From assembly GCA_963733815.1 (NCBI GenBank), contig CAVTEG010000015.1:171910-235909 (forward strand): a stretch of DNA of 64,000 bases. Reading direction: 5' to 3'. The stretch is from an uncultured Acidobacteriota bacterium. GTDB lineage: Bacteria > Acidobacteriota > Thermoanaerobaculia > UBA5066 > Gp7-AA6. This document shows, in pieces, positions 28,120-63,867 of this stretch (positions within the stretch are counted from its first letter, which is position 1; every line of letters starts with the position of its first letter). A model generated the notes under the pieces. The model saw only the letters and a list, made by a program, of their open reading frames with translations, did no database searches and was not told the DNA's origin. The position numbers were made by a program, and so were the translations under genes.

Positions 28120-31100
28120 TCACGCTTTCTCGATTTTCACGAGGAACGCCTTGTACTCCGGCGTCCAGGTGTTCGGGTCCATCGCGGACGGCGTCAGGTG
28201 GTTCGCGAGGGGGCCGGTGTGCCCGGTGTTGCCGGCGGCATACCCCCAGTGGAGCGGGAAGCCGATCTGCCAGATCTCCTTGCCGTCGACTTGAGCTTGA
28301 TGCAGCCGTTTCGTCACCATCGCGACGCCCTGCACGGAGCCGCGCGCGCGACGTGACCTTGACCTGAGATCCGTTGGCGATTCCCTTCTCCTTGGCCAGG
28401 CTCTTCCGGGATCTCGACGAAGAACCCGGGCTGGAGCTGGTTCAAGCCTGGGTGTGCTTGGTCCAGTAGTGGTACATCTCGGTGAGCCGGTAGGTCGTGC
28501 ACGACGATGGGAAAGTCGTACGGTTTCCGTAGACGTCCTTGTCGGATGTGAACTTCTTGGTGGCCGGGCTCGACGCTGACCTTCGGGTGGAGCAGGTTGT
28601 CGACGGGCGCTTCGATCGGTTCGTAGTGCTCGGGGAACGGACCGTCGTTCAAGCGATGCGGCGAAGAGCCGGCCCACGCCTTCCGGCAGCATGATGAAGG
28701 CGCCCGTACTCGCCCGGGCGGCGAGTCGGGCTTGATGTCGGGCACGTCGCCGACCCATTTCTTGCCGTTCCACACGATGCCGGGCCGCTTGGGATCCCAG
28801 GCTTTGCCCTGAGCGTCCGCAGACGCGCGGTTGTACATGATCCGGCGGTTGGCGGGCCAGGAGAAGGTCCAGTTGTGGTACATGCCGAGGCCTGTCGGGT
28901 CGGCGGTCGAGCGGCGCTGCGTGTTGTTGCCGGCCTCGGTGTAGGCGCCCGATGTAGAGCCAGTTGCCGCACATCGTCGAGCCGTCGTCCTGGAGCTGGC
29001 CGAAGCCGTCGAGCTGCTGGCCCGCGGCTTGCACGGAGGCTTCGTCTTGTCCTTGGGGTCCGGGATGTCGGCGACGGCCTTGCCATTCATCTCCTTGAGG
29101 CACTTCGCCGAGATCGGGATTGACCGGGTTGGTGTAGTCCCACGTCGACGTTGAGCGACCGGCTCCGGGACGCGCGCCGCCTTCCTTGCGCGTACAGGTC
29201 GCGAACCGCGAGGAAAATGCGCGCCATGATCTCCTGGTCGGCCCTGGCCTGGCCCGGCGGATCGACCGCCTTCCACTTCCACTGCAACCAGCGCGCGCGA
29301 GTTGGTGAAGCGAGCCGTCTTTCTCGGCGAAGTCGGCGGCGGGAGCTGGAAGACCTCGGTCTGGATCTTCGAGGCATCGGGCGTCCCGTATTCCTTGGGT
29401 GGCCTTCCAGAAGTGGCGGTCTCGATCTCGAAGTTCTCCGACGACCAGCCACTTCAGCTTCGAGAGAGCGGCGATGACCTTCGGCGTGTTCGGCCCGATG
29501 CCGACGGGGTTCATTCCGAACGTGATCAGGCCTTCGGGCGCCGGCTCCTTGCCGCCGGCGCGGTCGAGGTGCCGCGATACATGTCGTCGAAGATGTACAT
29601 CCAGCGAATAGTTGCCGTCGACCTTCGGGAGCCAGGCAGTACCCGAAGTCGTTTTCCTTGGTGGCGTTCTTCCCGTACAGGGCCTTCAGCAGCGAGACCA
29701 TGAACTTCGGATAGTTGCGCCAGTAGTTCATCGAGGCCCAGGCGCTGTTTGTTGAACGTCGTCGGAGTCGCGTCGGTCAGGTAGTCCTGCAGCGTCTGCG
29801 ACGGGCCCGCGAGGCGTCTTCATGTAGCCGGGCAGGATCTCGAACGTTCCCGCCCATGTCGGTGGCGCCCTGGATGTTCGAGTGGCCGCGCAACGCGTTG
29901 ACTCCGCCGCCGGGACGGCCGACGTTGCCCAGCAGCAGTTGCAGCATCGCCGCGCACCGGATCATCTGCACGCCGATCGAGTGCTGCGTCCAGCCCAGAG
30001 CGTACATAATCGTCCCGACGCGTCTCGGGCGGATACGATCGATGTGACGATCTCGGCCGACCTTGAGGAACTTGTCCTCGGGCGTGCCGCAGATGCGCTC
30101 GACCATCTCCGGGGTGTAGCGCTCGACGTGCTTCTTCAGGAGCTGGAAGACGCAGCGCGGGTCCTGCATCGTCGGGTCGACCTCGTAGGCCTTGCTCTTC
30201 GGGTCGGCCTCGTACGCCCAGTTGGTCTTGTCGTACTTCCCGATGCCTCGTCGAATCCGCTGAAGAGGCCCTCGTCGAAGCCGTACTTCTCGCCGATGAG
30301 ATAGGGCCGCGTTGGTGAAGAGCTTGACGTACTCCTCGTGGAAGCGCTTCTGCTCGATGGCGTAGCGGATGATCCCGAGCAGGAAGGCGATGTCGGTGCC
30401 GGCGCGGATCGGGGAGTAGTAAGTCGGCGACCGCAGCGGTGCGTGTGAAGCGCGGATCGACGGCGACGAGCTTGGCACTGCGGTTGCTGCTGGGCTTCGA
30501 TCGCACCACTTGAACCCGCAGGGATGGTTCTCGGCGGGATTGCCGCCCATGGCCAGGATCGACATCGGCGTTCTTGATGTCGATCCAGCCGTTGGTCATG
30601 GCTCCGCGCCCGAACGTGGCGGCCAAACTGGCCACCGTCGGGCCGTGTCAAACCCGGGCCTGGCTGTCCCGGTACGACACCCCCAGGGCCGCGACGGACT
30701 TTCCACTGCAAGAAGTTGAATTCGTTCGTGTCGGTGCAGCCGCCGATCATCGCGATGCCGGGGTTGCGATTGACGGTCTGGCCCTTGGCGTTCTTGGCGA
30801 CGAAGCACCGGTCGCGCGTGTCCTTGATGTGTCGCGCGATTCCGGCGATCGCATCGTCCCAGGAGATGTCCTCCCAGTTGTCCGAGCCCGGCCGGCGGAC
30901 CTTCGGCGTCAGCAGACGGTCGGGATTGTTGATGTCGTCGCGGAGAGTCGAGCCCTTCGGGCAAAGCGTTCCGCGGTTGATCGGGTGTTCGGGATCGCCT
31001 TCGACGTGAACGACGGCGGGTGTCGACGTTCTTGCGCCTTGTCGCCCAGCGTGTGAATGATCACTCCGCAGGAGACCGCGCAGTACGGGCAAGTACTTCG

Positions 31101-50691: not shown

Positions 50692-51816
50692 TCACGCATT
50701 GAGGCCCTGGCGCAGCTCGCGCGCCAGGATCTCGACGGCGGAACGGGTGCCTCCCGTGAGCTTTTCCTTCCAGACCGTCTCGGTCTCGAAGCGGCGGTCG
50801 CCGATCGCCTCCGCCCACGGGCGCAGCGCCGCGTCGAGCTCTCCCGCCGACCAGACGTCGCCGCCCCGCTTGCGGACCATCGCGATGACGTACGGAACGA
50901 TGCGGATGAACGCCCGGAGCGACGTCGAGCTCTTGATCGAGTACTTGCGTCCGGCGAACGCCGCGGGAAAGGCCCGTGCCGCGGCTTTGAAGTAGTTGAG
51001 GAAGAAGCGCCGCGCGTTCTCCCGGAACTCCCGGGCGACGCGGCCCCCCGCCGTATCGACCGCCGCGAAGACGTCGCGCAGCTCGTCGGCGAGCGAGGCC
51101 TGCGTGACCGATCCTTTTCCGATGCCGAGCACCTTGATGGAGCCCTTCAGAGGCGAGCTCTCGTCTTCGTTGAGCGTGCGGATGACGTCGTGGGCCGCCG
51201 CGAGGTTCTCGTCGCGGTAGAGGCGGCGCCCCGCCAGCGAGATCAGGTGCGAGGGATTCAGCTTCGTGTGCTTGCTGTTGATGGTGACGAAGAGCTCGAC
51301 GACCTGGTCCGGCGTGAGGTTGTCGAACACCACGGCGGGGACCTGGAAGTCGCGGAGATTGTGCTTTTCGGCGATCTGGTGGAGCGCGAGGAGCCGGTGC
51401 TGACCGTCCAGGGCGCGGAGGATGCCGGACTCTTCGGGAAGCTTCAACGAGCCGGCGTCGGCGCGTCCCCCGGACGGGGTGAACTCCAGGCGCTTCTCCG
51501 AGACGAGGAGCACGCTGCCCGGGATCGCCGGCAGCGAGCCGGCGTCGGCCTGCTGGAGGTAGTAGGCCACGAGCTCGTCGATCTTCTTCTTGATGATCGG
51601 ACGCTGAAACGCGTGCTCGGACGCCGCGATCTTCTTTTCCAGGAGGTCCCAGTTCACCCGCCCCGCCGGTTTGTGCTTGCCGCGGGTGGTCTCGCTGCCG
51701 GGGCCGAAGGAGAGGACCTCGAAGCCGACCAGGGACTGCAGATCGGCGCCCGAGAGCAGGGCCTCGTAGAAGCGGACGCCGAACTGGTTCAGGCGAAGCG
51801 AGGGAACCGAAATCAT
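50692..51816 (-). CDS. DGQHR-domain protein (DndB-like family), stand-alone
   Basis: The LDGQHRLLAL motif has flanking conservation. The start is MISVPSL. The upstream 54 codons of the track ORF translate the heptamer palindrome and are non-coding. Confidence 0.7.
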   Translation of the reverse strand: MISVPSLRLNQFGVRFYEALLSGADLQSLVGFEVLSFGPGSETTRGKHKPAGRVNWDLLEKKIAASEHAFQRPIIKKKIDELVAYYLQQADAGSLPAIPGSVLLVSEKRLEFTPSGGRADAGSLKLPEESGILRALDGQHRLLALHQIAEKHNLRDFQVPAVVFDNLTPDQVVELFVTINSKHTKLNPSHLISLAGRRLYRDENLAAAHDVIRTLNEDESSPLKGSIKVLGIGKGSVTQASLADELRDVFAAVDTAGGRVAREFRENARRFFLNYFKAAARAFPAAFAGRKYSIKSSTSLRAFIRIVPYVIAMVRKRGGDVWSAGELDAALRPWAEAIGDRRFETETVWKEKLTGGTRSAVEILARELRQGLNA

Positions 51817-52340: not shown

Positions 52341-53135
52341 ATGGAACCTCCGGAAACGATAGCATTCCGGCGTTCGTCCGACACCGTGAAAAGAGTCCTG
52401 TTTTCGGGCCTTCTCCTGCTCGGCCCGGGCTTGCGCCCGGCCGCGGCGCAGGACCGCGTGTACGCGTCTCACCTGATGGTCGACCAGGACGTCGCGGTCG
52501 CGTCGCGGATCTCGGGCGTCATCGCGTCGATCGCCGTGGACCGCGGAGCGGTCGTGACGCAGGGGCAGGAGCTCGCCGCGCTCGATCCTCGCGAGGCCGA
52601 CGCCGACGTGCGCGAGGCGAAGGAAGACATGGAGTTGAAGAAGGCCGAGCACGCCCGGGCGGAGTCGCTGGCCGCGTCCAAGATCACGAGCGCGGCGGAC
52701 CTGGACGAGAAGAAGGCCCAGTACGCCGTGGCCACGGCGCGGTGGGAGAAGGCCAAGACGTTGCGGGACTACACCGTGATCCGGGCGCCCTTCGCCGGTG
52801 TGGTCACCGAGAAGTACGCCCGCATCGGCCAGAAGGTCACCGAGGACAAGCCCGAGCCCTTGTTCAAGATCACGGCGGTCGAGCCCCTGCTCGCCCGGAT
52901 CTATCTGCCCGAGGAAGAGCTGCTCCGCGTCAAAGTCGGGGACCGCGTCGACATCGTCGCCGAGCGATTCCCGGACGTGAAGACGACCGGCGAGGTCCAG
53001 TTCATCAGCCCGACTGTGGACGCCGCGAGCGGGACCTTCCAGGTCGTGGTTCGGGTCAAGCGGGAGCCCGCGCGTACGGTGCTGCGGCCCGGCATCGCGG
53101 TCCAGGTGCGGTTCCCCAAGGCCGCGGCGAAGTAG
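52341..53135 (+). CDS. HlyD-family periplasmic adaptor (membrane fusion protein), short form
   Basis: An N-terminal anchor or signal (LFSGLLLLGPGLRPAAA) is followed by a biotinyl-lipoyl-like segment, a coiled coil and a beta-barrel segment. Confidence 0.7.
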   Translation: MEPPETIAFRRSSDTVKRVLFSGLLLLGPGLRPAAAQDRVYASHLMVDQDVAVASRISGVIASIAVDRGAVVTQGQELAALDPREADADVREAKEDMELKKAEHARAESLAASKITSAADLDEKKAQYAVATARWEKAKTLRDYTVIRAPFAGVVTEKYARIGQKVTEDKPEPLFKITAVEPLLARIYLPEEELLRVKVGDRVDIVAERFPDVKTTGEVQFISPTVDAASGTFQVVVRVKREPARTVLRPGIAVQVRFPKAAAK

Positions 53136-53151
53136 AGAATCGCCGGCAGGC

Positions 53152-53872
53152 CATGCCGCCGACCGCTCCCCGCACCTCCGCCCGTCTCCGGTCGGCCCGC
53201 GACCGTGTGCTCGTGCACGACATCAAGAACATGTCCTTCCGGCTCCGGCTGCTGCTGTCCAATCTCGACGAGCACTGGGAAGACCCCGACTTCCGCCGGA
53301 CCGTCCGCGACCTGCTCGCCTCCTGTGTGGAGCGGCTGGAGGGAATCGCAGGCCGGTTCGTGGAACGCGAGGATGCGGTTCTCATCAAGGTGGCCCTGGA
53401 CGTCAACGATCTGCTGCGCCAGGTCGCCGAGCTCCCGGGCCGCAGGTCGGGCCGAAAAGGCGCGGAGGCGAGTCCCGGCGTTTCCCTGGCACTCGGAGAT
53501 GCGCCTCGAATCTGGGGGGATCCCTACTACCTCGCCGACGCCGTGGCGAGCCTGGTCGACAACGCCTGCGAGGCCGCGGCGCCGGCAGGCCGCGTGCTCA
53601 TGAGGAGCTTTTCCGCCGGCAGCCCGCGCCGACCCCGGGCCGTCATCGAAATCATCGACAATGGAGCCGGGATGACTCCCGAGTTCCTGCGCGATCGGCT
53701 CTTCCAGCCCTTCGAGACAACCAAGCCGCAGGGCGTGGGACTCGGTCTCGCGACCGCCAACCAGATCGCTCGCCTGCATCGCGGGACGATCCGGGTCCTG
53801 AGTCAGCCCGGCGGCGGTACCCTCGTGCGGCTGTCCTTTCCCGGGATCCCGGCCGAGCCGGGCGAGGCCTAG
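53152..53872 (+). CDS. Cytoplasmic sensor histidine kinase (no sensor domain)
   Basis: The H-box is LVHDIKN, and the N/G1/G2 boxes are present (DNACEAA, IIDNGAGM, GVGLGLA). Confidence 0.75.
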
Positions 53873-54145
53873 CAGGTTGCTGAAAGAGGGTGTGGGATGG
53901 CGTTACGAGCGCCACGGGGTCAGATGCAAGGAAGCGCGACGACGGCGATGCCCTTGCATCGTCGAGGAGCGATGACGATGCAGATGGCCCCGCGCCGCCG
54001 TAACCCGAAGGGTGGACGGCAATTTGCCGGCGGCCGCTCAATCGCGATAGAGCACCGAGTCGCAACACTTTGGAACGGGCGCCGGATGCAAATTGCCGGA
54101 CACGACACCCGCATCCATCTTTCAGCGGCCTGCTAGGAGGCGCGC

Positions 54146-55523
54146 GGTGGGCGGTCAGGCCGAAGGCGCGATCGGCCGCATCCTCATCGTCGAGGACGAC
54201 GAGGTTCTCCTCGAGCAGCTGACCTGGGCGTTGAAGGGCAAGTTCGCGGTTTCGTCGGCGCGCGACGCCACGCATGGCAAGGCCCTTTGCGACGCGGAAC
54301 CGGACCTCTTTCTTTTCGACATGCGCCTGCCTCCGTCGCAACAGGTCCAGGAGGGGCTCGAGTTGTTGCGCCACGCGCGCCGGCGCGACCCGGAGGCCAC
54401 GGTCGTCATGATGTCGGGCGAAGGGGAGAGGGGCGACGCCCTGAAGGCGATCGCCCTGGGCGCCTTCGACTTCTTTCAGAAGCCGATCGACACGGCGGAA
54501 CTGCTGGTGATCCTGAACCGCGCTCTCGAGCGCCGGCGTCTGATGTCCGAGAACCGCGAGCTGCGCCGGGCCGTCTCCCAGCCGGCCGTCTCCGAGCGTT
54601 TGATCGGCGAGAGCCCGGCGCTGCGCCGCTTGAACAGCGAGATCGACCGTGTCGCCTCCGGCGACGCGACCGTGCTGCTCCACGGCGAGAGCGGCACCGG
54701 CAAGGATCTGGTGGCCCGGACGATCCACGCGCGCAGCGGACGCCGCGACCGCCCCTTCGTCGCCGTCAACGTGGCGGCGATGCCGGAAACGCTCGTCGAG
54801 GCGGAGCTGTTCGGTCACGAAAAGGGAGCCTTCACCGGAGCCATCGCATCGCGTCCCGGGCGCTTCGAGCTCGCGCACGGCGGCACGCTGTTTCTCGACG
54901 AAATCGGCACGCTCTCGCCGGCGGCCCAGGCGAAGCTGCTCCGCGCCATCGAAAGCCGGGAGGTCGAGAGAGTCGGCGGCCGCCGCGCGATCCCGGTGGA
55001 CTTTCGCCTGATTTCGGCCACCAATGAGGATCTGGAGGCGCGGGTGGGCGCCGGGAGCTTCCGGGAGGACCTGTACTACCGCATCAACACGATCCCGATC
55101 CGGATTCCGCCTCTGCGGGAGCGAGGCGACGACGTCGCGCTGCTGGCGCGGCACTTCCTCGGAGAGCTTCGCGCCAAGCATGGCCGGGGACCCACGCGCC
55201 TCTCGGAGGCGGCCCTGGCGCGCCTCTCGGCGCATCCGTGGAGAGGCAACGTCCGGGAGCTCCAGCACGCGATCGAGACGCTGGTGGTCTTCGCCGAAGG
55301 TGACGAGGTCGTCGAGGAGGATCTGCCGCGGGCCCTCCGGGAGCGCGCCTCGCCAAAGGCCGTCCACGCGTCGACGTCGTTCGCCCAGGCCGTCGAGGAC
55401 TTCGAGCGGCGACTGCTCTCAGACGCGATCGCCGCGGCCGGCGGCGTGAAGGCCGAGGCGGCGCGCAAGCTGGGTCTCGATGCGAATCAGATCAAGTATC
55501 TGTGTCGGAAATACGGGCTCTGA
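54146..55523 (+). CDS. Sigma-54-dependent response regulator (NtrC family)
   Basis: It has a receiver domain, an AAA+ sigma-54 activation domain (GESGTGKD, GAFTGA, ESELFGHEKGAFTGA-like) and a C-terminal Fis-type HTH. The GTG start has an AGGAGG RBS. Confidence 0.9.
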
Positions 55524-55530
55524 TTTATGG

Positions 55531-55568
55531 GTGAAAAACTCAACCGCGGTGAGAAAAGTTTTCACCAA
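55531..55568. promoter_or_regulatory. Candidate enhancer (UAS) palindrome for the NtrC-type regulator
   Basis: GGTGAAAAACT-N17-AGTTTTCACC lies about 90-120 bp upstream of the sigma-54 promoter. Confidence 0.4.
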
Positions 55569-55648
55569 GTCTTAGACTCGCGCCTGCCGCGAATCGTTAA
55601 ATTACTGAAAGCAAGCTATTTGTTTATCGTACCCGGGGCGGGAAAACC

Positions 55649-55664
55649 TGGCGCGAACCTTGCG
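55649..55664 (+). promoter_or_regulatory. Sigma-54 (-24/-12) promoter: TGGCGCGAACCTTGCG
   Basis: It matches YTGGCACGrNNNTTGCW with the GG and GC correctly spaced. It is followed by RBS AGGAGGG and ATG 55697. Confidence 0.6.
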
Positions 55665-55696
55665 CTCTAGTCGTTGGAAAGAGGAGGGAAGAAACA

Positions 55697-56218
55697 ATGG
55701 CGAACGAAGTCAAGATCAAGCTGACGGACGCGCAGAAGGAAAAGATCCGCGAGGCCACGGGCAAGGACATGCCCGAGATCCGCGTGGAGAGCTTCGGAGG
55801 CAACGCCGCGCTGTCTCCGACGACGAAGGTCGTCTCGGCTCGCGCGATGGGCAAGTCGATTGGCGCGCGGGCGACGGGCAAGTCGGTCGGCGCTCGGGCG
55901 ACGGGCAAGTCGATTGGCGCGCGAGCCACGGGCAAGTCGGTCGGCGCTCGGGCGACGGGCAAGTCGATTGGCGCTCGGGCCACGGGCAAGTCGGTCGGTG
56001 CGCGGGCGACGGGCAAGTCGATTGGCGCTCGGGCCACGGGCAAGTCGGTCGGTGCGCGGGCGACGGGCAAGTCGATTGGCGCGCGGGCGACGGGCAAGTC
56101 GATTGGCGCGCGGGCCACAGGCAAGTCGATTGGCGCTCGGGCCACAGGCAAGTCGATTGGCGCTCGGGCGACGGGCAAGTCGATTGGCGCTCGGGCAACG
56201 GGCAAGGCCCAGTTCTAA
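55697..56218 (+). CDS. Leader-plus-tandem-repeat small protein: about 50-aa amphipathic leader followed by 14 units of ARATGKS(I/V)G
   Basis: Translation gives MANEVKIKLTDAQKEKIREATGKDMPEIRVESFGGNAALSPTTKVVS, then 13 full nonapeptide units plus a terminal ARATGKAQF. It has no Cys, no signal peptide, a strong RBS and a sigma-54 promoter. Confidence 0.7.
   Translation: MANEVKIKLTDAQKEKIREATGKDMPEIRVESFGGNAALSPTTKVVSARAMGKSIGARATGKSVGARATGKSIGARATGKSVGARATGKSIGARATGKSVGARATGKSIGARATGKSVGARATGKSIGARATGKSIGARATGKSIGARATGKSIGARATGKSIGARATGKAQF
55838..56215. repeat. 27-bp in-frame tandem repeat (x14; 54-bp higher-order period over the first 8 units)
   Basis: Repeats of the form GCGCGGGCGACGGGCAAGTCGATTGGC. 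The I and V variants alternate at first, then five consecutive I units follow. Confidence 0.8.
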
Positions 56219-56240
56219 GGAACCCGCTTCACTTCGAAAC

Positions 56241-56269
56241 GCCCCGCTCCGGCGGGGCGTTTCTCTTTT
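56241..56269 (+). terminator. Rho-independent terminator (functional in both directions between convergent genes)
   Basis: A GCCCCGC-tccg-GCGGGGC stem is followed by GTTTCTCTTTT. Confidence 0.6.
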
Positions 56270-56273
56270 GCGT

Positions 56274-58463
56274 TCACCACGCCACGGACTGCACCCAACG
56301 CTTGAGCACGCGCCACGCGCGCGCCGCGTAAGAGGCGCGCCTTCCATAGATCTTGGCGTAACCGTGCATTCCGGCGTAGAGGCTGCCGTCCTCGTTGTCA
56401 AAAACGGCGAGGGCCACGAAACGCTCGGGCTGCTCCTGGGGCGCCGAGGGATCCGCATTCGCCGCGGCGGTCTTGGGTTGTGCGAGGGCGGCCGGGGCGA
56501 TCGAGACGATCGTGCCGTGAACGGGCCGCGGATGCCCGAGGAAAAGCGCGGTGACCGGCGCGTTCGGCACGAGATCTTCGAGAAGACGTTCGGAAACGGT
56601 CAGGTCCGCCGCCATCCGCCGGTCCTCGCCGACCTCGGCGAGAAGAGTCCCCGCGGGCACGGAGCGCCCTTCGAGGTCGCGTACGTAGGGAGTCAGCAAG
56701 TGCCCCGTCGAAGGGCTCTTCACCAGCAGGCGCTCCTCGCGGGCACGTCCGTTCTTCAAGGCCGCGTCGAGGGAGACGCCCCGGGTCTCGGATGCGAAGA
56801 CGCGCGCCGGCTCGGCGGCCTGCCGCGCCAGGCTCGCGTCGCGCGTCGCGCGCTCGCGCTCGGAAGTGAGCCGCTTCGTCGCTTCCGACGCGGCCGCGCT
56901 GACGAGCTGGAAGACCGGCTGCCCGGCCGTCACGCGATCCCCCTCCTGGGCGAGCGCGCGCGTCACGACCCCGTCTTCCGGAGCCTCCAGTCGGATCGTC
57001 ACCGTGGGCCGGAGCAGGGCGGGTGAGCGGAGTGTGCGCCGGCTCCAGGGGAGGAAGAACAGCAGGGCGAGCACGGCGGCGCCGGCGAAGAGCGCCGCGC
57101 GGATACGGTGCGACATGAGCAGCTCCTTCTTGTCGAGATAGAAGAGATGGCCCGTGCGCGTGACCAGGCGGACCCGCTTGCGAAAGAGGCGGTACAGCGT
57201 CAGGACCAGGAGCACGATCGCCCAGTTCGGGAAGAAGTGGTGGTAGAGGTTGTAGAGGAGCCCGCCGATGAACCGCATGACGACGCCCACCCACGCCAGC
57301 GCGAGCGAGCCGAAGATCCAGTAGATCCGGCGCTTGCGCCGTGAGACCAGGGGCACCTCGACGGGAAGCCTCAGCACGTATCGCTGGAAGCACGCCCCGA
57401 TGTAGCGGAACGATTCCTCCCGCAGGTCCGGAATTTCGAGCACGCTCGAGAGCGCGTAGTAGCCGTCGATCTTGATGAGCGGGTTGATGTTGAAGAAGAC
57501 CGTCGAAACTCCCGTGAAGAGCATCGTCTTGAACGCGATCTCGTGCACAAGAGTGTCGGGATAGGAGACCACCCACGCGAGCGTGGCCACCGAACACATG
57601 ATGGCCTCGATGTAGATGCCCGCCGTCGTGACCCAGAGCCGGTGCCACTTGTTCGTGAAGAGCACCGAGTCGGTCGTGTCGCAGTAGAACGCCGGCGTGA
57701 AATAGAGGAGCGCCAGGCCTATGTCGTGGACTTCGCCGCCGTAGATTTTGGTGACGTACGCGTGCGAGAACTCGTGGAACAGTCCGATGAAGGTCAGAAT
57801 GCAGAAGAACTGCACGACATCGAGAAGTGGTTTCGACGTCAACGCGTAGAGCTCGATCGTTCCGCTCCAGATCGCCCCCCAGTGCACGAGGATGACCCCG
57901 AAAGCCCAGCCGGCGAAGATCAAAGCCGCCGCCACGACGGGAGGCGTCCAGATCCAGCGCACGTACTTCACGGTCCGGTCCAGGAAGCGGTTGGGGTCGA
58001 GGACGTGGAAGAGCAGGAAGAACGGGTTGAAGCCCTCGGCCTTCTCCTCGGCGGCGCGCTGGCGGGCCGTCTTCGCGTTCGCGAGGAGCTTGAGGTTCCT
58101 CTCGGCCGCGGACTGCGCGATGAGGCCCATCTCGCGGAGCATTTCCGCGTACTCGCGGACGACGGCCATCTCGATCTTCTCGCGTGGGAACATCGCCTGG
58201 TACTCGGCATGGATCTGCGCCAGCGTCCGCGTCCCATCGAACATCTGGCAGAGCCCCCACTCGGGGTCGTCGAAGTTGTAGTACTTCGTGGTCTCCGGGT
58301 TCTTCACGACCCAGTTGATCTCGCCGAGCTGCACGACGCGCCGGATCACCGCGTCCGATCGGATGGCCGGGCGGTCGCTGGCGATGCCGTGACGGGCCGC
58401 GAGGGCCGCCGCGCCTTCTTCCGGGCGCGTGGCGGCGAGCAAACGTCCGGGGCGCGCGCTCAC
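56274..58463 (-). CDS. Tri-domain protein: PqqD-like RRE domain - M50/S2P-like zinc metalloprotease - HlyD-like adaptor
   Basis: The GTG start overlaps the upstream stop (GTGA). The N-terminus IRRVVQLGEINWVVKNPETTKYYNFDDPEWGLCQMFDGTRTLAQIHAEYQ...EYAEMLREMGLI fits the PqqD/RRE profile. The membrane core has HEFSHAY (HExxH) and NPLIKIDGYY (S2P NxxPxxxLDG motif). The C-terminus has a biotinyl-lipoyl-like segment, a coiled coil and a beta-barrel segment. The 384 codons of the track ORF upstream of the GTG overlap the neighbouring gene and are spurious. Confidence 0.75.
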   Translation of the reverse strand: MSARPGRLLAATRPEEGAAALAARHGIASDRPAIRSDAVIRRVVQLGEINWVVKNPETTKYYNFDDPEWGLCQMFDGTRTLAQIHAEYQAMFPREKIEMAVVREYAEMLREMGLIAQSAAERNLKLLANAKTARQRAAEEKAEGFNPFFLLFHVLDPNRFLDRTVKYVRWIWTPPVVAAALIFAGWAFGVILVHWGAIWSGTIELYALTSKPLLDVVQFFCILTFIGLFHEFSHAYVTKIYGGEVHDIGLALLYFTPAFYCDTTDSVLFTNKWHRLWVTTAGIYIEAIMCSVATLAWVVSYPDTLVHEIAFKTMLFTGVSTVFFNINPLIKIDGYYALSSVLEIPDLREESFRYIGACFQRYVLRLPVEVPLVSRRKRRIYWIFGSLALAWVGVVMRFIGGLLYNLYHHFFPNWAIVLLVLTLYRLFRKRVRLVTRTGHLFYLDKKELLMSHRIRAALFAGAAVLALLFFLPWSRRTLRSPALLRPTVTIRLEAPEDGVVTRALAQEGDRVTAGQPVFQLVSAAASEATKRLTSERERATRDASLARQAAEPARVFASETRGVSLDAALKNGRAREERLLVKSPSTGHLLTPYVRDLEGRSVPAGTLLAEVGEDRRMAADLTVSERLLEDLVPNAPVTALFLGHPRPVHGTIVSIAPAALAQPKTAAANADPSAPQEQPERFVALAVFDNEDGSLYAGMHGYAKIYGRRASYAARAWRVLKRWVQSVAW

Positions 58464-60919
58464 GGCAGAAGCGGCCAGATCTTGTTCCAGAGATACCGGA
58501 GAGGCTTCCGGAACAGCGCCGTGATGACGCGCCGCGTGCCGACGGAGACCTTGCCGTTGCCGAGCATGCCGGTCTTCAGCCTCCCGTCGGAATTCGGAAC
58601 GGCCACCTCGGCGATCAAGAAACGCTGGTCGCCTTCCTCGCGGATCCGGGGCGCGACGCGGGCGACTTCTCCACGGAAGAGCGTCCCGGGGTAGGGGTTG
58701 AACTTCAAAGCCGTCTTCTGGCCCGGCCGGACCAGGGCCGCGTCGGCCTCGGGAACGGCGACCTCGGCCGTTACGGTGCGAACGTCGGCGACGACGCAGA
58801 GCTCCGCGCCTCGCGGAAGAAGCTGACCGACCCTCTCCTCGATCCGCGGAGTCACGATGATGCCGGCGGCAGGTGCAGTCAACCGGGTGCGCGACAGGCG
58901 GTCTTCGGCGAGAGCGATGCGCGCGCGGGCCTCGCGCCGGCGCGCCTCGGCGTCGAAAACAGCGCCGGCGTCCGCATTCTGGCGCGACCGCGCAACGTCG
59001 ACGTCCGAAAGCGCCAGCGCCGACTTGGCCTCCGCCAGCGCGGCCTGGTAGCTCTCGTCCTTCAACGTCGCGATGACGTCGCCGGCCTCCACACGGTCGC
59101 CCTCCCGCCGCAGCACGGCGCCGACGACGCCGTCCACCATCGACGTGACGGCGGCGCGGCGGCCCGGGAGGACCCGTGCGGGCCCGGTGATGCGCAGGGG
59201 CCACGGTGCGACGAACAGGATCAGGGCGGCGACGGCCGCGCCGATTGCCCATCGCCGTCGGCGGGACAACGGGATCGCCGAGAGCTTGCGCTGCTTCTCC
59301 AGGAGCGGTTTCCAGAAGCCGGCCAGCGGCACCTGCTGGTAGAGCTGCGCATTGCGGACGGCCACGGTGGCCTGGTTGACCAGGATCGACAGGAGGTCTC
59401 GCGTCTCCTCTTCGAACACCAGCGGCTCCTTGCTCTCGAATCCGAGAGCGCCGAGCTTTCCTTCCTCGTCCTTGAGGAGGACGCCGTAGAACGACCTCAT
59501 GCCCGTTTCCTGGAAGATCGCCCGGAACTTCTCCTCGGTCTCGGGCCGGTCGGCGGTGATCGCGCCGTCCTCGGTCTGCGTCACCGCGGTGTCGGTCCCG
59601 GAGAGGAAGATCCACTGAAGCAGCTCTTCCATCCGCCGGGCCTCGGGGTTTTTCCGGTCCACCTCGGTCGTGCCGGAGAGCGCCCCCAGCCGCAGCTTCC
59701 CCTTCTCCTGGATCGCAATCCCGCAGCTGTCATAGTGGATCAACGCCGAGGTGGCGTTGACGATCGTCTGCATGACCTTGTCGAGATCGAGCGTGGCCGT
59801 GATCTCTCGGGACACGGCCAGGAGCGCGTCGAGCTCCTCGACCTTCTTCTCGGCCTCGTGCTGCCTCGCCGTCCGCAGGGCCCGGACGGCCTGGCGGGCG
59901 ACGTCCTGCAAAAGCTCCTCGTCCTCGGCCGAGAACTCGGGGTGCCGGCCGCGCTTGTTGGCGAGGACGAGCGCTCCGATCGTGATTTCTTCTTCGACGA
60001 GAGGCGCCGCCAGGACCGACTGGATCGGATAGCCGGTGTCCTCCTCCGCCCCCGGGTCCCCGGCGGGAATGCGGTTGCGCCGTACGGACGTCTGATCGGC
60101 GATGACGTCGCCGACGATCGAGGCGCCGACCGCCTCGGGCGCCGGGGTGACGTCGTAGTTCTCGTTGACGGCAGTGGCGGCCAGGTTGACCTCGCCCTTC
60201 GCGCTGTCGAGCACCCAGAGCGACGCCGATTCGGCCGTGACGAAGTCCGCGGCCTTGCGAACGATCAGCGCGGACAGCTCGTCGGTGTCGATCGTCGAGC
60301 CGAACGCCTTCGAGAGGTCGTAGAGGTTGGTCAGCCGCTCGATCGCGTGGAGCATGCCGACGGTCTTGCGCTCGGACCGCAGCGCCCGTCCCAGAGCCGG
60401 CGCCGCCTGCTCGAGGAATCTCTCCAGGCGCGCCAGCGCGTCTTCGGCGTCGGGCATGTGGCTGAAGTAGAGAGCGAGGAGTCCCACCACAAGGCCCTCG
60501 GCGTGGAGCGGCACCGCGAGGCAGGCGCGGAGCGTCGGGGGCAGCCCCCGCACGAAGGGATCGGAGGTTGCCAGCTCTTCTCCGGTCAGGACGATGGCCT
60601 GACGATCGCGGACCAGGTCATGGATGATGCCGGTCTCGCGCGGCGCCGATCGCCTCAGGAGCTTGTCGACTCCCGGGCCGGAACCCGCGATGCAGAGGAA
60701 CAGGGGATGAACGGTGTCGGGAGCCCAGAGCAGCGCGGCCTCGGCACCGGTCATGGTGATGCTCCATCGCGCCGCCCATCCCGACGTCTGCGAGAGGTTC
60801 TCGCAGAGGGCCAGCTCGGCGAGAGCCGAGACCTCGTCTTCGGACCCCGAGACGTGGTGCTCGGACTCGTCGGCCTCTTCGACCGGTTCGTCTTCCGTAT
60901 CTTCGGGCTCGTCCGCCAT
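58460..60919 (-). CDS. Triple-GAF-domain protein fused to a TM segment and a HlyD-like adaptor
   Basis: An acidic N-terminus is followed by three GAF-like modules (about 60-480 aa), a TM helix (WAIGAAVAALILFVAPW) and an MFP-like C-terminus (biotinyl-lipoyl-like segment, coiled coil, beta-barrel). Confidence 0.75.
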   Translation of the reverse strand: MADEPEDTEDEPVEEADESEHHVSGSEDEVSALAELALCENLSQTSGWAARWSITMTGAEAALLWAPDTVHPLFLCIAGSGPGVDKLLRRSAPRETGIIHDLVRDRQAIVLTGEELATSDPFVRGLPPTLRACLAVPLHAEGLVVGLLALYFSHMPDAEDALARLERFLEQAAPALGRALRSERKTVGMLHAIERLTNLYDLSKAFGSTIDTDELSALIVRKAADFVTAESASLWVLDSAKGEVNLAATAVNENYDVTPAPEAVGASIVGDVIADQTSVRRNRIPAGDPGAEEDTGYPIQSVLAAPLVEEEITIGALVLANKRGRHPEFSAEDEELLQDVARQAVRALRTARQHEAEKKVEELDALLAVSREITATLDLDKVMQTIVNATSALIHYDSCGIAIQEKGKLRLGALSGTTEVDRKNPEARRMEELLQWIFLSGTDTAVTQTEDGAITADRPETEEKFRAIFQETGMRSFYGVLLKDEEGKLGALGFESKEPLVFEEETRDLLSILVNQATVAVRNAQLYQQVPLAGFWKPLLEKQRKLSAIPLSRRRRWAIGAAVAALILFVAPWPLRITGPARVLPGRRAAVTSMVDGVVGAVLRREGDRVEAGDVIATLKDESYQAALAEAKSALALSDVDVARSRQNADAGAVFDAEARRREARARIALAEDRLSRTRLTAPAAGIIVTPRIEERVGQLLPRGAELCVVADVRTVTAEVAVPEADAALVRPGQKTALKFNPYPGTLFRGEVARVAPRIREEGDQRFLIAEVAVPNSDGRLKTGMLGNGKVSVGTRRVITALFRKPLRYLWNKIWPLLP

Positions 60920-60971
60920 GCGCCTCCTCGGTGGACACGACTTGGGCCGGGTGCCAGACGGGTCTGACCCC

Positions 60972-61307
60972 TCAGAAGCTGGAGACCGCGGCCTCCATGT
61001 CGTCGTGGATCTCGAACACCGAGTCGAGCTTGGTCATCTGGAGGAGCTTGCGAATCTGGGGGCCGGCGCGGAGGAGCTTGGTCTGGCCCCCTTCCTTCTG
61101 CGACTGCGTCAGCGCCCGCACCAGAGCTCCGAGGCCCGAGCTGTCGAGGAAGCCCACGCCCGAAAGATCCACGAGCAGACGGGTATGGCCCTCCTCCAGC
61201 AGACGCGTGACGGTCTTCTTGAAGGTCGACTCGGCGTCGCCGATGACGAGGTCTCCCGTCACGGTCAGCACCGTTACGGAGCCGTCTTCATGAGTTTGAA
61301 GTTCCAT
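60972..61307 (-). CDS. STAS-domain protein (anti-sigma-factor antagonist SpoIIAA-like)
   Basis: A 111-aa ORF. The LVDLSGVGFLDSSGLGALV motif contains the conserved phosphorylatable Ser region. Confidence 0.8.
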   Translation of the reverse strand: MELQTHEDGSVTVLTVTGDLVIGDAESTFKKTVTRLLEEGHTRLLVDLSGVGFLDSSGLGALVRALTQSQKEGGQTKLLRAGPQIRKLLQMTKLDSVFEIHDDMEAAVSSF

Positions 61308-61404
61308 GGAACCGGGGCATTATGCCAAAAGCCGAAGATGTCGGGGGCCGCAGCGGTTTCGGGGCGAAACCGGCGGTATTGGCCGAGCGCCATATGATCC
61401 CGCC

Positions 61405-63179: not shown

Positions 63180-63441
63180 GGGCTTCTTCAGAAAATCGTT
63201 GGGAGTCCTTTTCCGATGGTTTCCGGCAAATCCGTAAGGGCCCTCACCCCGTACAAGACGAGGAGGCAGGAACCGAGTTCGGGGCGTCCGGAGGCTTGAA
63301 ACCGGGGGAGCGGCTATAAGATCTCGCGATTCAACCGGTCCGGTACGCGAACCGGGTTGGCGAGTCACTCGACGAGGCCATGGCGGTCTCGCCGATTCGT
63401 TGGGGAGCCCCCGCAAAGGGGGCAACGAAAGGAGACCTTGG

Positions 63442-63867
63442 ATGAAGAAGGGTGATCTGACGGTGAAGGCTCTCGGCCTCGCGGTCGCGGGCGTCCTCGC
63501 AGGCTCCGGCCTGATGGCGGCGCTGCCGGCCGGCGGGGTGAAGGGCGACGAGGCGAGGCCGGCTTCGACCGACGCGAAGGCCCAGGACAAGGCGGGCGCG
63601 ACGTCGGACAAGCACGTCTGCAAGGGCCAGAACGCGTGTAAGGGCAAGGGCGGCTGTAAGGCCGGCGACAACGGATGCGCAGGCAAGAACTCTTGCAAGG
63701 GCAAGGGCGGCTGCGCTTCGGCCGACATGAAGCACTCCTGCAAGGGCATGAACTCGTGCAAGGGCCAGGGCGGCTGCAAGAGCGGCGACTCCGGTTGCGC
63801 GGGCAAGAACTCTTGCAAGGGCAAGGGCGGCTGCGCGGTTCCGGTGGCTCCGAAGAAGGCGGCCTAA
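63442..63867 (+). CDS. Secreted 12-Cys repeat peptide (two tandem 6-Cys units), candidate metal-binding or RiPP metallophore precursor-like
   Basis: The signal peptide is MKKGDLTVKALGLAVAGVLAGSGLMAA. The core contains two copies of xCKGxNxCKGxGGCKxGDxGCAGKNSCKGKGGCA. A good RBS AAAGGAGA is present. Confidence 0.65.
   Translation: MKKGDLTVKALGLAVAGVLAGSGLMAALPAGGVKGDEARPASTDAKAQDKAGATSDKHVCKGQNACKGKGGCKAGDNGCAGKNSCKGKGGCASADMKHSCKGMNSCKGQGGCKSGDSGCAGKNSCKGKGGCAVPVAPKKAA

Follow-up and report, generated by a model that had tools for sequence, protein, structure and literature searches.

The locus studied here raises the question of which function is served by a small protein, composed of a leader and tandem nonapeptides, that is encoded beside a protease-adaptor fusion protein and a pair of sigma-54-type regulators. 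It is located at positions 52341-61307 of a 64,000-nucleotide stretch of DNA (hereafter the window) from an uncultured Acidobacteriota bacterium (Thermoanaerobaculia; GenBank assembly GCA_963733815.1, contig CAVTEG010000015.1, positions 171,910 to 235,909 of the forward strand) and consists of seven genes arranged in two convergent sets within a 61-72% G+C context. A preliminary description of the window had proposed a leader-dependent processing and export system under sigma-54 control. Based on comparative sequence analyses, leader-guided cleavage of the small protein and its export without an ATP-binding cassette (ABC) transporter are judged moderately probable, both activities being deduced from homologous and analogous systems. 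The genes and protein parts on which this assessment is based are as follows.

52341-53135, + strand: short membrane fusion protein (MFP) of the HlyD/RND-adaptor type, 264 amino acids, weakly hydrophobic N-terminus; heads the regulator operon
53153-53872, + strand: histidine-kinase core (DHp and ATPase domains), 239 amino acids, cytoplasmic; HATPase_c at 5e-20
54093-55523, + strand: NtrC-type sigma-54 activator, 476 amino acids, with Response_reg, Sigma54_activat and HTH_8 domains
55697-56218, + strand: small protein gene, 173 amino acids, no family match
55697-55819, + strand: leader part of the small protein, residues 1-41 (MANEVKIKLTDAQKEKIREATGKDMPEIRVESFGGNAALSP), recognized by conservation, its end placed by analogy
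55838-56206, + strand: tandem repeat cargo, ARATGKS[IV]G, located by Tandem Repeats Finder
56274-58463, - strand: fusion of a PqqD-like RRE, an M50/site-2 protease (S2P) and an MFP, 729 amino acids, assigned by NCBIfam, family profiles and an AlphaFold (AF2) model
58460-60919, - strand: GAFx3-MFP, 819 amino acids; GAF at 2e-30, HlyD_D23 at 2e-20
60972-61307, - strand: STAS protein, single domain, heads the export operon; STAS at 3.5e-20

The gene encoding the M50 fusion begins with a GTG codon overlapping the stop codon of the preceding GAFx3-MFP gene, and a spacer of 173 nucleotides separates the activator gene from the small open reading frame (ORF).

In a scan of one genome per species, 47 loci harboring relatives were obtained, nearly all of them from metagenome-assembled genomes of the Thermoanaerobaculia/Acidobacteriota. 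The seven genes appear in the same order and orientation in approximately 38 of these loci, down to a protease identity of about 50%, the remaining ones being short contigs or two distant outliers. Since flanking genes are common to closer relatives only, the seven genes represent a conserved unit, and their conservation in approximately 38 genomes shows that the co-localization is not due to chance. The co-occurrence of the fusion with a short repeat ORF and a sigma-54 element, as envisaged in the preliminary description, was likewise found in these genomes, with the leader conserved.

The small protein and its leader have no match in Pfam or NCBIfam. Its leader comprises approximately 41 residues in every locus, twelve positions are invariant across 27 distinct leaders, and the consensus reads M-x-x-E-V-[KR]-I-x-L-T-x-x-Q-K-x-K-I-x-x-x-T-G-x(4)-E-I-R-V-x(3)-G-x-N-x-A-[VL]-[ST]-P. 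The leader was taken to end at residue 41 by analogy to the relatives discussed below. In view of its strand-helix pattern, an RHH-type role in DNA binding was also considered for the leader. Leader entropy summed by codon position amounts to 16.9/12.7/35.7; the small ORF is accordingly considered real and under coding constraint because variability is concentrated in third codon positions, as in a translated gene. Moreover, 37 of 39 small genes have a Shine-Dalgarno sequence (GGAGG, 9 nucleotides before the ATG, in the window). No hydrophobic segment was found in the small protein, which therefore appears to be a precursor without a Sec route of its own.

High-GC genomes yield many spurious ORFs, and the small protein lacks a family match, so that a low-complexity artefact or a merely coincidental adjacency has to be weighed. 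The probability of this explanation is regarded as negligible, since position, strand, leader, ribosome-binding site and sigma-54 element are kept in approximately 38 genomes, two genomes (L022 and L036) carry two tandem copies with promoter elements of their own, and homologous leaders occur beside the same module in other phyla. Chance adjacency is excluded because these comparative data contradict it.

Downstream of the leader, the protein is always a tandem repeat, whose unit type varies from clade to clade. In the window, the period is 27 nucleotides with 13.7 copies and 87% matches, a higher-order period of 108 nucleotides is superimposed (Tandem Repeats Finder), and the protein ends in ...ATGKAQF; the description of a leader followed by about 14 nonapeptides thus proved accurate. 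Other loci encode units such as A[RG]AAGKSI[AG], LRAGTKAP, ATRASVKA and SARSVEAAR, or the shorter RANTP, RNAAP, RVAAP, SLKSP, AQDLS, KDLSA and DDALR. Periods range from 5 to 11 residues (5, 8, 9, 10, 11) or doubles thereof, with approximately 5-28 copies. The repeats are rich in Ala (27%), Ser (12%) and Arg (10%) and practically devoid of Cys and aromatic residues. A conserved leader followed by hypervariable repeats corresponds to the organization of precursors composed of leader and variable core.

Some further observations concern the small-protein family as a whole. In L022 (11763-12998) and L036 (12975-14188), the two tandem precursor paralogues, each with its own sigma-54-type element, bear related but distinct arrays of the AQDLS/AQDMSIS types. 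Most database entries for the small protein are fragments of 45-74 residues on short contigs (P0271-P0310), and frameshifted copies of the gene were observed in several long-read loci (L030, L041, L042, L045). The repeat array evidently disrupts assemblies and gene calls, which would leave the family under-represented in protein databases.

The protein that would act on this precursor is the fusion encoded at the end of the opposite operon. It consists of a PqqD-like RRE (residues ~35-115), the M50/S2P part, one further membrane helix and a periplasmic MFP (~474-729). The catalytic motifs HEFSH (230-234) and NPLIKIDG (327-334) lie in predicted membrane helices and correspond to the HExxH and NxxPxxxxDG motifs of site-2 proteases. 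Within an alignment of 110 diverse relatives, H230, E231 and H234 are 99% conserved, and N327, P328, D333 and G334 are 96-100% conserved. The NCBIfam model daptide_HExxH (NF041824) aligns to residues 49-425 at an E-value of 7e-49 (167 bits compared to an equivalog cut-off of 300), and the YydH/LiaK model (NF058609) aligns to the catalytic region at 1.7e-9 (37.7 bits compared to a cut-off of 225).

Regarding the N-terminal domain, a profile constructed from the first 110 residues of 33 relatives matches the PqqD structure 3g2b at an E-value of 3e-5, followed by PqqCD, the lasso-peptide RREs TbiB1 and TfuB1, and PaaA; Pfam PqqD matches individual sequences in 22 of the 33 relatives. In the AF2 model (pLDDT 79), residues 39-111 form three strands followed by three helices, the membrane core is helical, and the alpha-hairpin of the MFP spans residues 523-578. 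The best Foldseek matches of the model are MacA, MexA and AcrA (E-value 1e-13); the search with the whole model returned MFP structures only, so that this comparison covers the MFP part. Because NCBIfam, motif conservation, N-domain profile, AF2 and Foldseek agree, the predicted order RRE, M50/S2P, MFP is confirmed at the level of the family.

Two further MFPs accompany the fusion. The short MFP matches HlyD_D23 at 2e-22 and the RND_mfp model at 153 bits (cut-off 95), and it is conserved in at least 35 loci. The GAFx3-MFP comprises three cytoplasmic GAF stretches, a membrane helix at residues ~557-575 and a periplasmic MFP part, scoring 111 bits with the RND_mfp model (cut-off 95). Hence three MFPs are encoded together, and the one modelled displays an alpha-hairpin, as do the MFPs of type I secretion or tripartite efflux. 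The STAS protein is 63-99% identical in 41 loci, belongs to the anti-sigma-antagonist type (TIGR00377, 73.5 bits compared to a cut-off of 53) and contains a DSSG motif. Profile searches therefore support the STAS and GAFx3-HlyD genes as well as the short HlyD-like adaptor heading the regulator operon, all of which had been named beforehand. Likewise, the reported lack of an ABC or RND pump and of a modification enzyme applies to the locus and its flanks: no ABC or C39 domain was detected in the seven proteins or the flanks using Pfam and NCBIfam, and no peptide-modifying enzyme is encoded in the conserved seven-gene unit or the flanks.

Regulation of the locus is suggested by the following sequence elements.

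55530-55566, no strand assigned: candidate activator-binding dyad, GGTGAAAA-N21-TTTTCACC, putative function
55649-55663, + strand: predicted sigma-54-type promoter, -24 TGGCGC, -12 TTGC; motif match, conserved
56236-56263, + strand: intrinsic terminator hairpin between the convergent genes, 12-bp stem and T-run
61319-61327, - strand: TGGCATAAT / TTGACATAAT box, 11-13 nucleotides before the STAS ATG, putative function

The element TGGCGC-N5-TTGC lies 34 nucleotides before the small-gene ATG and deviates by one mismatch from TGGCAC-N5-TTGC. In 39 of 40 cases, a relaxed pattern (TGG[CT]NN-N5-[CT]TGC) occurs 43-80 nucleotides before the small gene, both copies of two-copy genomes being counted, and the lone exception has a spacer that is one base longer. 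As an internal control, regions of 200-250 nucleotides upstream of the STAS gene (0 of 41) and of the short MFP gene (0 of 35) lack the relaxed pattern. The element is thus specific to the small gene and represents a predicted promoter, featuring GG at -24, GC at -12, fixed spacing and a cognate AAA+ activator with a GAFTGA loop. The sole perfect TGGCAC-N5-TTGC sequence of the window (30473-30487, +) is situated inside long ORFs of the opposite strand and was set aside as a probable chance occurrence due to its intragenic position.

The activator matches Sigma54_activat (8e-69), Response_reg (5.5e-18) and HTH_8 (1e-8), contains a Fis-type helix-turn-helix, and is closest to the PrsR model (TIGR02915, PEP_resp_reg; 446 bits compared to a cut-off of 502.6). 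The kinase core aligns to positions 482-679 of the 679 positions of the PrsK model (130 bits compared to a cut-off of 300) and has neither a hydrophobic segment nor a sensor domain. A histidine kinase and an NtrC-type activator upstream of a near-consensus sigma-54 promoter, as originally described, are therefore present, with the element conserved in nearly every case. In several related loci, similar GGTTGAAA/TTTCAACC dyads occur at an equal distance, approximately -170 from the ATG, which makes the A+T-rich dyad, located ~85-120 nucleotides upstream of the -24 element, a candidate site for the activator. Residues 302-370 of the GAFx3-MFP align weakly (E-value 0.006) to the GAF region preceding the PrsK kinase core. 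Since the separate kinase matches the PrsK core alone, GAFx3-MFP and kinase may, very tentatively, constitute a split PrsK-like sensor.

The export operon headed by the STAS gene appears to be controlled differently. A conserved TTGACATAAT-like box lies 11-13 nucleotides before its ATG in most of the loci L001-L045, and no Shine-Dalgarno sequence precedes the STAS start codon, which suggests a -10 element of the sigma-70 type and a nearly leaderless transcript. As the sigma-54 element is found at the small gene only and the STAS box is distinct, the substrate gene would be the regulated element, whereas the export machine looks constitutively expressed. The hairpin between the convergent genes (12-bp G+C-rich stem, -30 kcal/mol, z = -4.6) had been described as a terminator shared by both. 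Its T-run is confined to the + strand; the hairpin thus clearly qualifies as terminator of the small gene, whereas for the convergent operon it is no more than a possible one.

The module is not confined to this lineage. When the RRE-M50 part was used as query, at least 1,575 representatives of clusters at 50% identity were retrieved with E <= 1e-30, a number rising to 6,248 with E <= 1e-10, and full-length matches are mostly 680-750 residues long, which is the length of the three-part fusion. Using the leader profile, unnamed fragments of the same clade and more distant peptides of 44-60 residues were recovered; a profile of the latter matches 1,306 cluster representatives. Among 124 retrieved peptides, 122 follow the scheme x-[IV]-R-I-E-L-T-x-E-Q-K-A-K-[IV]-R-x-A-T-G-K...E-L-E-[DE]-R-[IV]-[AS]-P plus a tail. 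Tails comprise 3-16 residues (median 7), consist of Lys plus Arg to 35%, and begin with Arg in 64 cases (e.g., RKKFV, RKTFPTP and KKYIPKPS). In all four contexts examined, which belong to other phyla, the peptide gene directly adjoins the M50-MFP gene, and the full operon of GAFx2-MFP, short MFP and M50-MFP was found in the three contigs long enough to contain it. The best matches of the window trio are its own counterparts in these distant loci at 32-35% identity (GAF-MFP 32%, short MFP 35%), and because each component is closest to its own counterpart, the trio represents an old, co-inherited module.

The single-tail peptide loci are L058 (7596-18808), L060 (4240-13516) and L052. Two of the short-tail contexts include two Ser/Thr kinases, with a BTAD-AAA regulator upstream in L058, and another one features a Crp-type regulator together with a cyclase having AAA_16 and a weak TPR match. 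This looks like interchangeable sensing modules, as judged from domain content, around one export core. Furthermore, the repeats of the acidobacterial proteins could, by analogy, be concatenated peptide units and thus the counterpart of the single tails of 3-16 residues in the wider family, a reading that is slightly preferred.

In Proteobacteria, the trio (short MFP, (GAF-)MFP and RRE-M50-MFP) is 26-27% identical to that of the window and retains the catalytic motifs. It was found together with TolC and a giant repeat protein of 2,700 to 16,000 residues on several chromosomes and plasmids, among them Escherichia coli IncF plasmids and replicons of Pseudosulfitobacter, Pontibrevibacter, Variovorax and Aidingimonas; in Azospirillum, the trio is accompanied by TolC, with no adjoining giant gene annotated. 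On the E. coli IncF plasmid NZ_CP081687.1 (L049/L051), genes for TolC, short MFP, MFP and M50-MFP directly follow that of a 4,459-residue Ig-like protein, and the same arrangement is present on 17 further E. coli and 8 Citrobacter plasmids. The N-terminus of this Ig-like protein (...HRFALESRQLFDGA) is a variant of the LEPRxLL motif. Four readable giant N-termini (...MEALEPRFLLSADP, ...LDPMEPRVLLSADP, ...AMALEARYMFDAA and ...FALESRQLFDGA) bear a motif of the [LM]E[PSA]R type. The LEPR-XLL model (NF012209) matches the Pseudosulfitobacter giant (MEALEPRFLLSADP) at 6e-8, as the only one of the four scanned, and the Pontibrevibacter giant is annotated as LEPR-XLL in its record. A published discussion of very large bacterial LEPRxLL-type proteins describes them as lacking known transport signals. 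The window leader does not match the LEPR-XLL model at E-values up to 1, so that the machinery alone is shared.

Three of the six proteobacterial loci (Aidingimonas, Pseudosulfitobacter and Pontibrevibacter) additionally encode a truncated SecA-like ATPase of 650-675 amino acids within the module.

L046, 12124-14088; L048, 12026-14050; L055, 11091-13076: truncated SecA-like ATPase, inside the module

SecA_DEAD matches at 1e-99 in L046 and L048, the two scanned. The public record of L048 lists the protein as 'prepilin peptidase' and that of L055 as 'DEAD/DEAH box helicase'; L048 also has a gene of the SapC family. Judged by its domain, this ATPase is a candidate for the motor that the acidobacterial loci lack.

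Taken together, the following sequence of events is proposed, in which the individual steps are modelled on relatives that share the arrangement known from daptides and have a comparable motif in the equivalent position. The sensor-less kinase core and the PrsR-like NtrC activator would switch on the sigma-54 promoter, which would drive synthesis of a 173-residue precursor without Sec or Tat signal, comprising the 41-residue leader and about 14 ARATGKS[IV]G copies. The cytoplasmic PqqD-like RRE of the inner-membrane M50/S2P protease would bind the leader, and the protease would remove it, probably just after the [AV][ST]P motif around residue 41 (...NAALSP / TTKVVS...). The MFP domain of the fusion, the GAFx3-MFP and the short MFP would assemble into a conduit across the periplasm, connected to a TolC-type channel whose gene lies outside the locus, and by this path the charged, Ala-rich repeat cargo would exit the cell, while the cytoplasmic GAF and STAS domains may gate the machine or report on it. 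The idea of leader recognition, already part of the preliminary description, gains plausibility from the RRE, the intact catalytic motifs and the homology to a known leader peptidase.

Several observations weigh against this proposal. The missing motor is its weakest point: no pump of the ABC, RND, major facilitator superfamily (MFS) or SecA type was found in the seven genes or the flanks, although some proteobacterial versions possess the SecA-like ATPase. MFPs alone do not transport, and translocation of substrates is not known for S2P proteases. Neither does the locus or any of its seven flanking ORFs encode a TolC-type protein, the flanks of relatives having been compared with those ORFs only. 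Export mediated by HlyD-like proteins, as first suggested, consequently stands without an identified motor or outer-membrane partner in the locus. Moreover, the acidobacterial leaders have lost the ELExR motif, and the final [AV][ST]P alone aligns with the peptide leaders. The kinase lacks a sensor domain, which leaves any feedback loop unexplained. As regards the fusion protein, the domain order given in the preliminary description as PqqD-M50-HlyD holds at family level, whereas the window sequence itself stays below the Pfam gathering scores for Peptidase_M50 (21.9 bits compared to 27.2) and PqqD (15.2 bits compared to 23.4). Finally, a junction or cleavage motif common to all repeat types was not found, and the window unit contains no Pro.

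The missing motor also bears on the possibility that nothing is exported at all. The S2P-MFP, GAF and STAS proteins might constitute an envelope-signalling device, operating by regulated intramembrane proteolysis or partner-switching, in which the small protein, instead of being secreted, would serve as a cytoplasmic regulator or decoy and be broken down on signal. S2P proteases classically act in signalling, STAS and GAF are signalling domains, and signal-transduction genes accompany the module in all of its versions (histidine kinase and NtrC activator; Crp and cyclase; Ser/Thr kinases and BTAD-AAA), while the locus encodes no motor or outer-membrane factor. This explanation is nevertheless considered improbable. 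The small protein is devoid of the membrane segment typical of S2P signalling substrates, the three MFPs are conserved together and the modelled one displays an alpha-hairpin of the TolC-docking type, TolC is encoded inside the proteobacterial versions, and the protease has its nearest named relative in a leader peptidase acting on secreted peptides. Assignment to the class of regulated intramembrane proteolysis also failed because the small protein has no membrane anchor and no anti-sigma factor gene was detected in the locus with Pfam and NCBIfam.

Concerning the fate of the cargo, release of short units and export of an intact polymer are rated roughly evenly, with a slight preference for the short units. 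Release of repeat units by the S2P-like domain, which the preliminary description had favored, is thus reduced to one of two readings in view of the missing common junction motif. In the other one, the leader would be removed and the repeats exported whole, to act as an extended, charged and Ala-rich polymer of the surface or matrix or to thread through the envelope-spanning conduit. As a complete account of the locus, this polymer explanation is rated as rather unlikely. It would fit the total length of the repeat part, which is similar (approximately 80-190 residues) whatever the unit length, be it 5 or 9-11 residues, as well as the lack of a shared junction motif and of Pro in the window unit and in most other units. 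The giant repeat proteins of Proteobacteria suggest that the module can accompany very long cargos, and the closest models of the regulators, PrsK and PrsR, act together with RpoN to drive production of secreted PEP-CTERM matrix proteins (PMC9850573). On the other hand, unit lengths of 5-11 residues match the tails of 3-16 residues of the single-tail relatives, [AST]P followed by R occurs at each unit boundary in approximately 10 of 36 repeat types and equals the leader-tail junction of the wider family, and a net charge of the repeat part ranging from +33 to -21 between species is hard to square with one structural role.

In order to place the leader-guided export module among known systems, it was compared with described pathways. 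The protease belongs with the RRE-S2P leader peptidases of daptides, the adaptors are ordinary MFPs, and the regulators are ordinary sigma-54 two-component proteins. According to the daptide paper, the RRE of the daptide protease is fused N-terminally to an intramembrane S2P, forming an RRE-dependent leader peptidase, and the leader motif ELExMEAP ends at position -1. The daptide protease MpaP and the window protease thus both begin with an RRE, behind which comes an intramembrane metalloprotease of the HExxH type, and are encoded beside short leader-bearing ORFs; the ELExMEAP motif resembles the ELE[DE]R[IV][AS]P motif of the relatives' leaders. In contrast to daptide clusters, the window locus does not encode an oxidoreductase, aminotransferase, methyltransferase or ABC transporter, its cargo is a tandem repeat that ends in ...GKAQF without a terminal Thr, and its protease has an additional MFP at the C-terminus, with two more MFPs encoded alongside. 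A daptide cluster was therefore ruled out, on account of a protease score of 167 bits, below the cut-off of 300 (homologous, not equivalog), the missing terminal Thr and the missing Mpa enzymes.

The epipeptide proteases YydH/LiaK likewise are M50-type membrane proteases encoded beside a small peptide precursor. However, the window lacks the radical-SAM epimerase and the ABC exporter of epipeptide systems, and the RRE and MFP fusions are absent from the YydH/LiaK model; with 37.7 bits compared to 225 and no such enzymes, an epipeptide system was ruled out. More general features of peptides that are made by ribosomes and modified after translation (RiPPs) are present, namely a PqqD-like RRE in a pathway protein, at family level, and a conserved leader with variable core. 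In its strict sense, the RiPP-like label of the preliminary description cannot be upheld, as there is no modification enzyme and the cargo is essentially free of Cys and aromatic residues.

Resemblance to C39-ABC and type I systems lies in the recognition and removal of an N-terminal leader by a protease built into the exporter itself, in the MFP partners, in the TolC of proteobacterial relatives, and in a cargo size that seems to extend from a few residues up to giant proteins. The module differs from them in having an M50 metalloprotease instead of a C39 cysteine protease, RRE-based recognition, and three MFPs rather than one. A classical type I secretion system (T1SS) or peptidase-containing ABC transporter (PCAT) was ruled out because no ABC transporter is encoded.

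Another comparison concerns the linear-peptide pathway of Staphylococcus aureus, which reportedly uses an S2P protease. Its substrates are said to be signal peptides of other proteins, with export by a separate ABC system, and it is not known to involve an RRE, an MFP fusion or a dedicated leader-bearing gene. A specialised processing and secretion pathway yielding small unmodified linear peptides is described for S. aureus (PMC7157817), and a likeness to the window locus can be seen in this dedicated processing and secretion of small unmodified linear peptides.

On the regulatory side, floc-forming bacteria employ PrsK/PrsR with RpoN to drive PEP-CTERM matrix proteins that are secreted in abundance (PMC9850573). 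The likeness to the window comprises PrsK and PrsR as the best-scoring models for kinase core and activator, and a sigma-54-type promoter preceding the gene of a small protein. Compared to PrsK, the window kinase has no membrane and GAF parts, and both scores are below the equivalog cut-offs. A PEP-CTERM target was ruled out because the small protein has neither a PEP motif nor a C-terminal membrane helix.

The loci of LEPR-XLL, tandem-95 and Ig-like giants share the same trio and a short N-terminal [LM]E[PSA]R motif on the cargo candidates. They differ from the window in that TolC is encoded, cargo candidates reach 2,700 to 16,000 residues and no sigma-54 two-component pair is present. A full-text literature search returned no description of the M50-MFP trio, its leaders or the giant-protein loci as a secretion system; matches to the peptide motifs were all spurious, and a graspetide paper mentioning HlyD and PqqD was irrelevant to the locus. 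Undescribed in the literature found are the RRE-S2P-MFP fusion, its fixed partnership with GAF-MFP and short MFP, the leader family and the tandem-repeat cargo, as well as such a module without any transporter or modification enzyme. The statement that the locus does not match described classes is hence correct for the classes tested, yet needs to be qualified: the protease belongs with the MpaP type of daptides, and the module is a branch of a very large family.

The seven genes are flanked by genes encoding DGQHR, LemA and M48 peptidase proteins on one side and alpha/beta-hydrolase and 6-phosphogluconolactonase on the other. The DGQHR (DndB/DpdB-like) gene product (50692-51816, -) is 85-97% identical across species compared to 74-88% for the locus proteins, a conservation that, as far as sequence identity goes, appears unusually strong for such a gene. 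At 63400-63867 (+), a secreted Cys-rich protein with two modules of the CKGxNxCKGKGGC type is encoded. It scores 51 bits with the BufA2 model of bufferin-type metallophores (cut-off 60) and is located near the locus in 12 relatives; the remainder of a bufferin operon, if any, would fall past the window end.

Beyond the individual locus, a more general proposal can be put forward tentatively, being held with less confidence than leader-guided export in the window itself. The RRE-M50-MFP fusion and its two partner MFPs would constitute a distinct and widespread envelope-spanning secretion route without an ABC transporter. A leader of the ELExR..P or LEPRxLL type would be read by the RRE and cut by the conduit's own metalloprotease, with cargos from tails of three residues via repeat arrays of 100 residues to giant adhesins of 16,000 residues. 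In the acidobacterial branch, the cargo would have turned into an array of peptide units that differs from species to species and is controlled by sigma-54.

If this holds true, the locus, with seven genes, one substrate and one promoter, would offer a compact entry into a very large unstudied family consisting of thousands of RRE-S2P-MFP fusions with two partner MFPs, which may represent a new export route across double membranes. Likewise, a function would be suggested for the N-terminal motifs of LEPRxLL type that occur in some of the largest bacterial proteins known. For the mining of RiPPs and peptide signals, it would mean that RRE-protease fusions can mark pathways without a modification step, and that tandem-repeat 'multi-core' precursors exist in bacteria outside known classes. 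Finally, a regulated, species-specific secreted product would be indicated for the Acidobacteriota, a group that is common in soils and difficult to cultivate.

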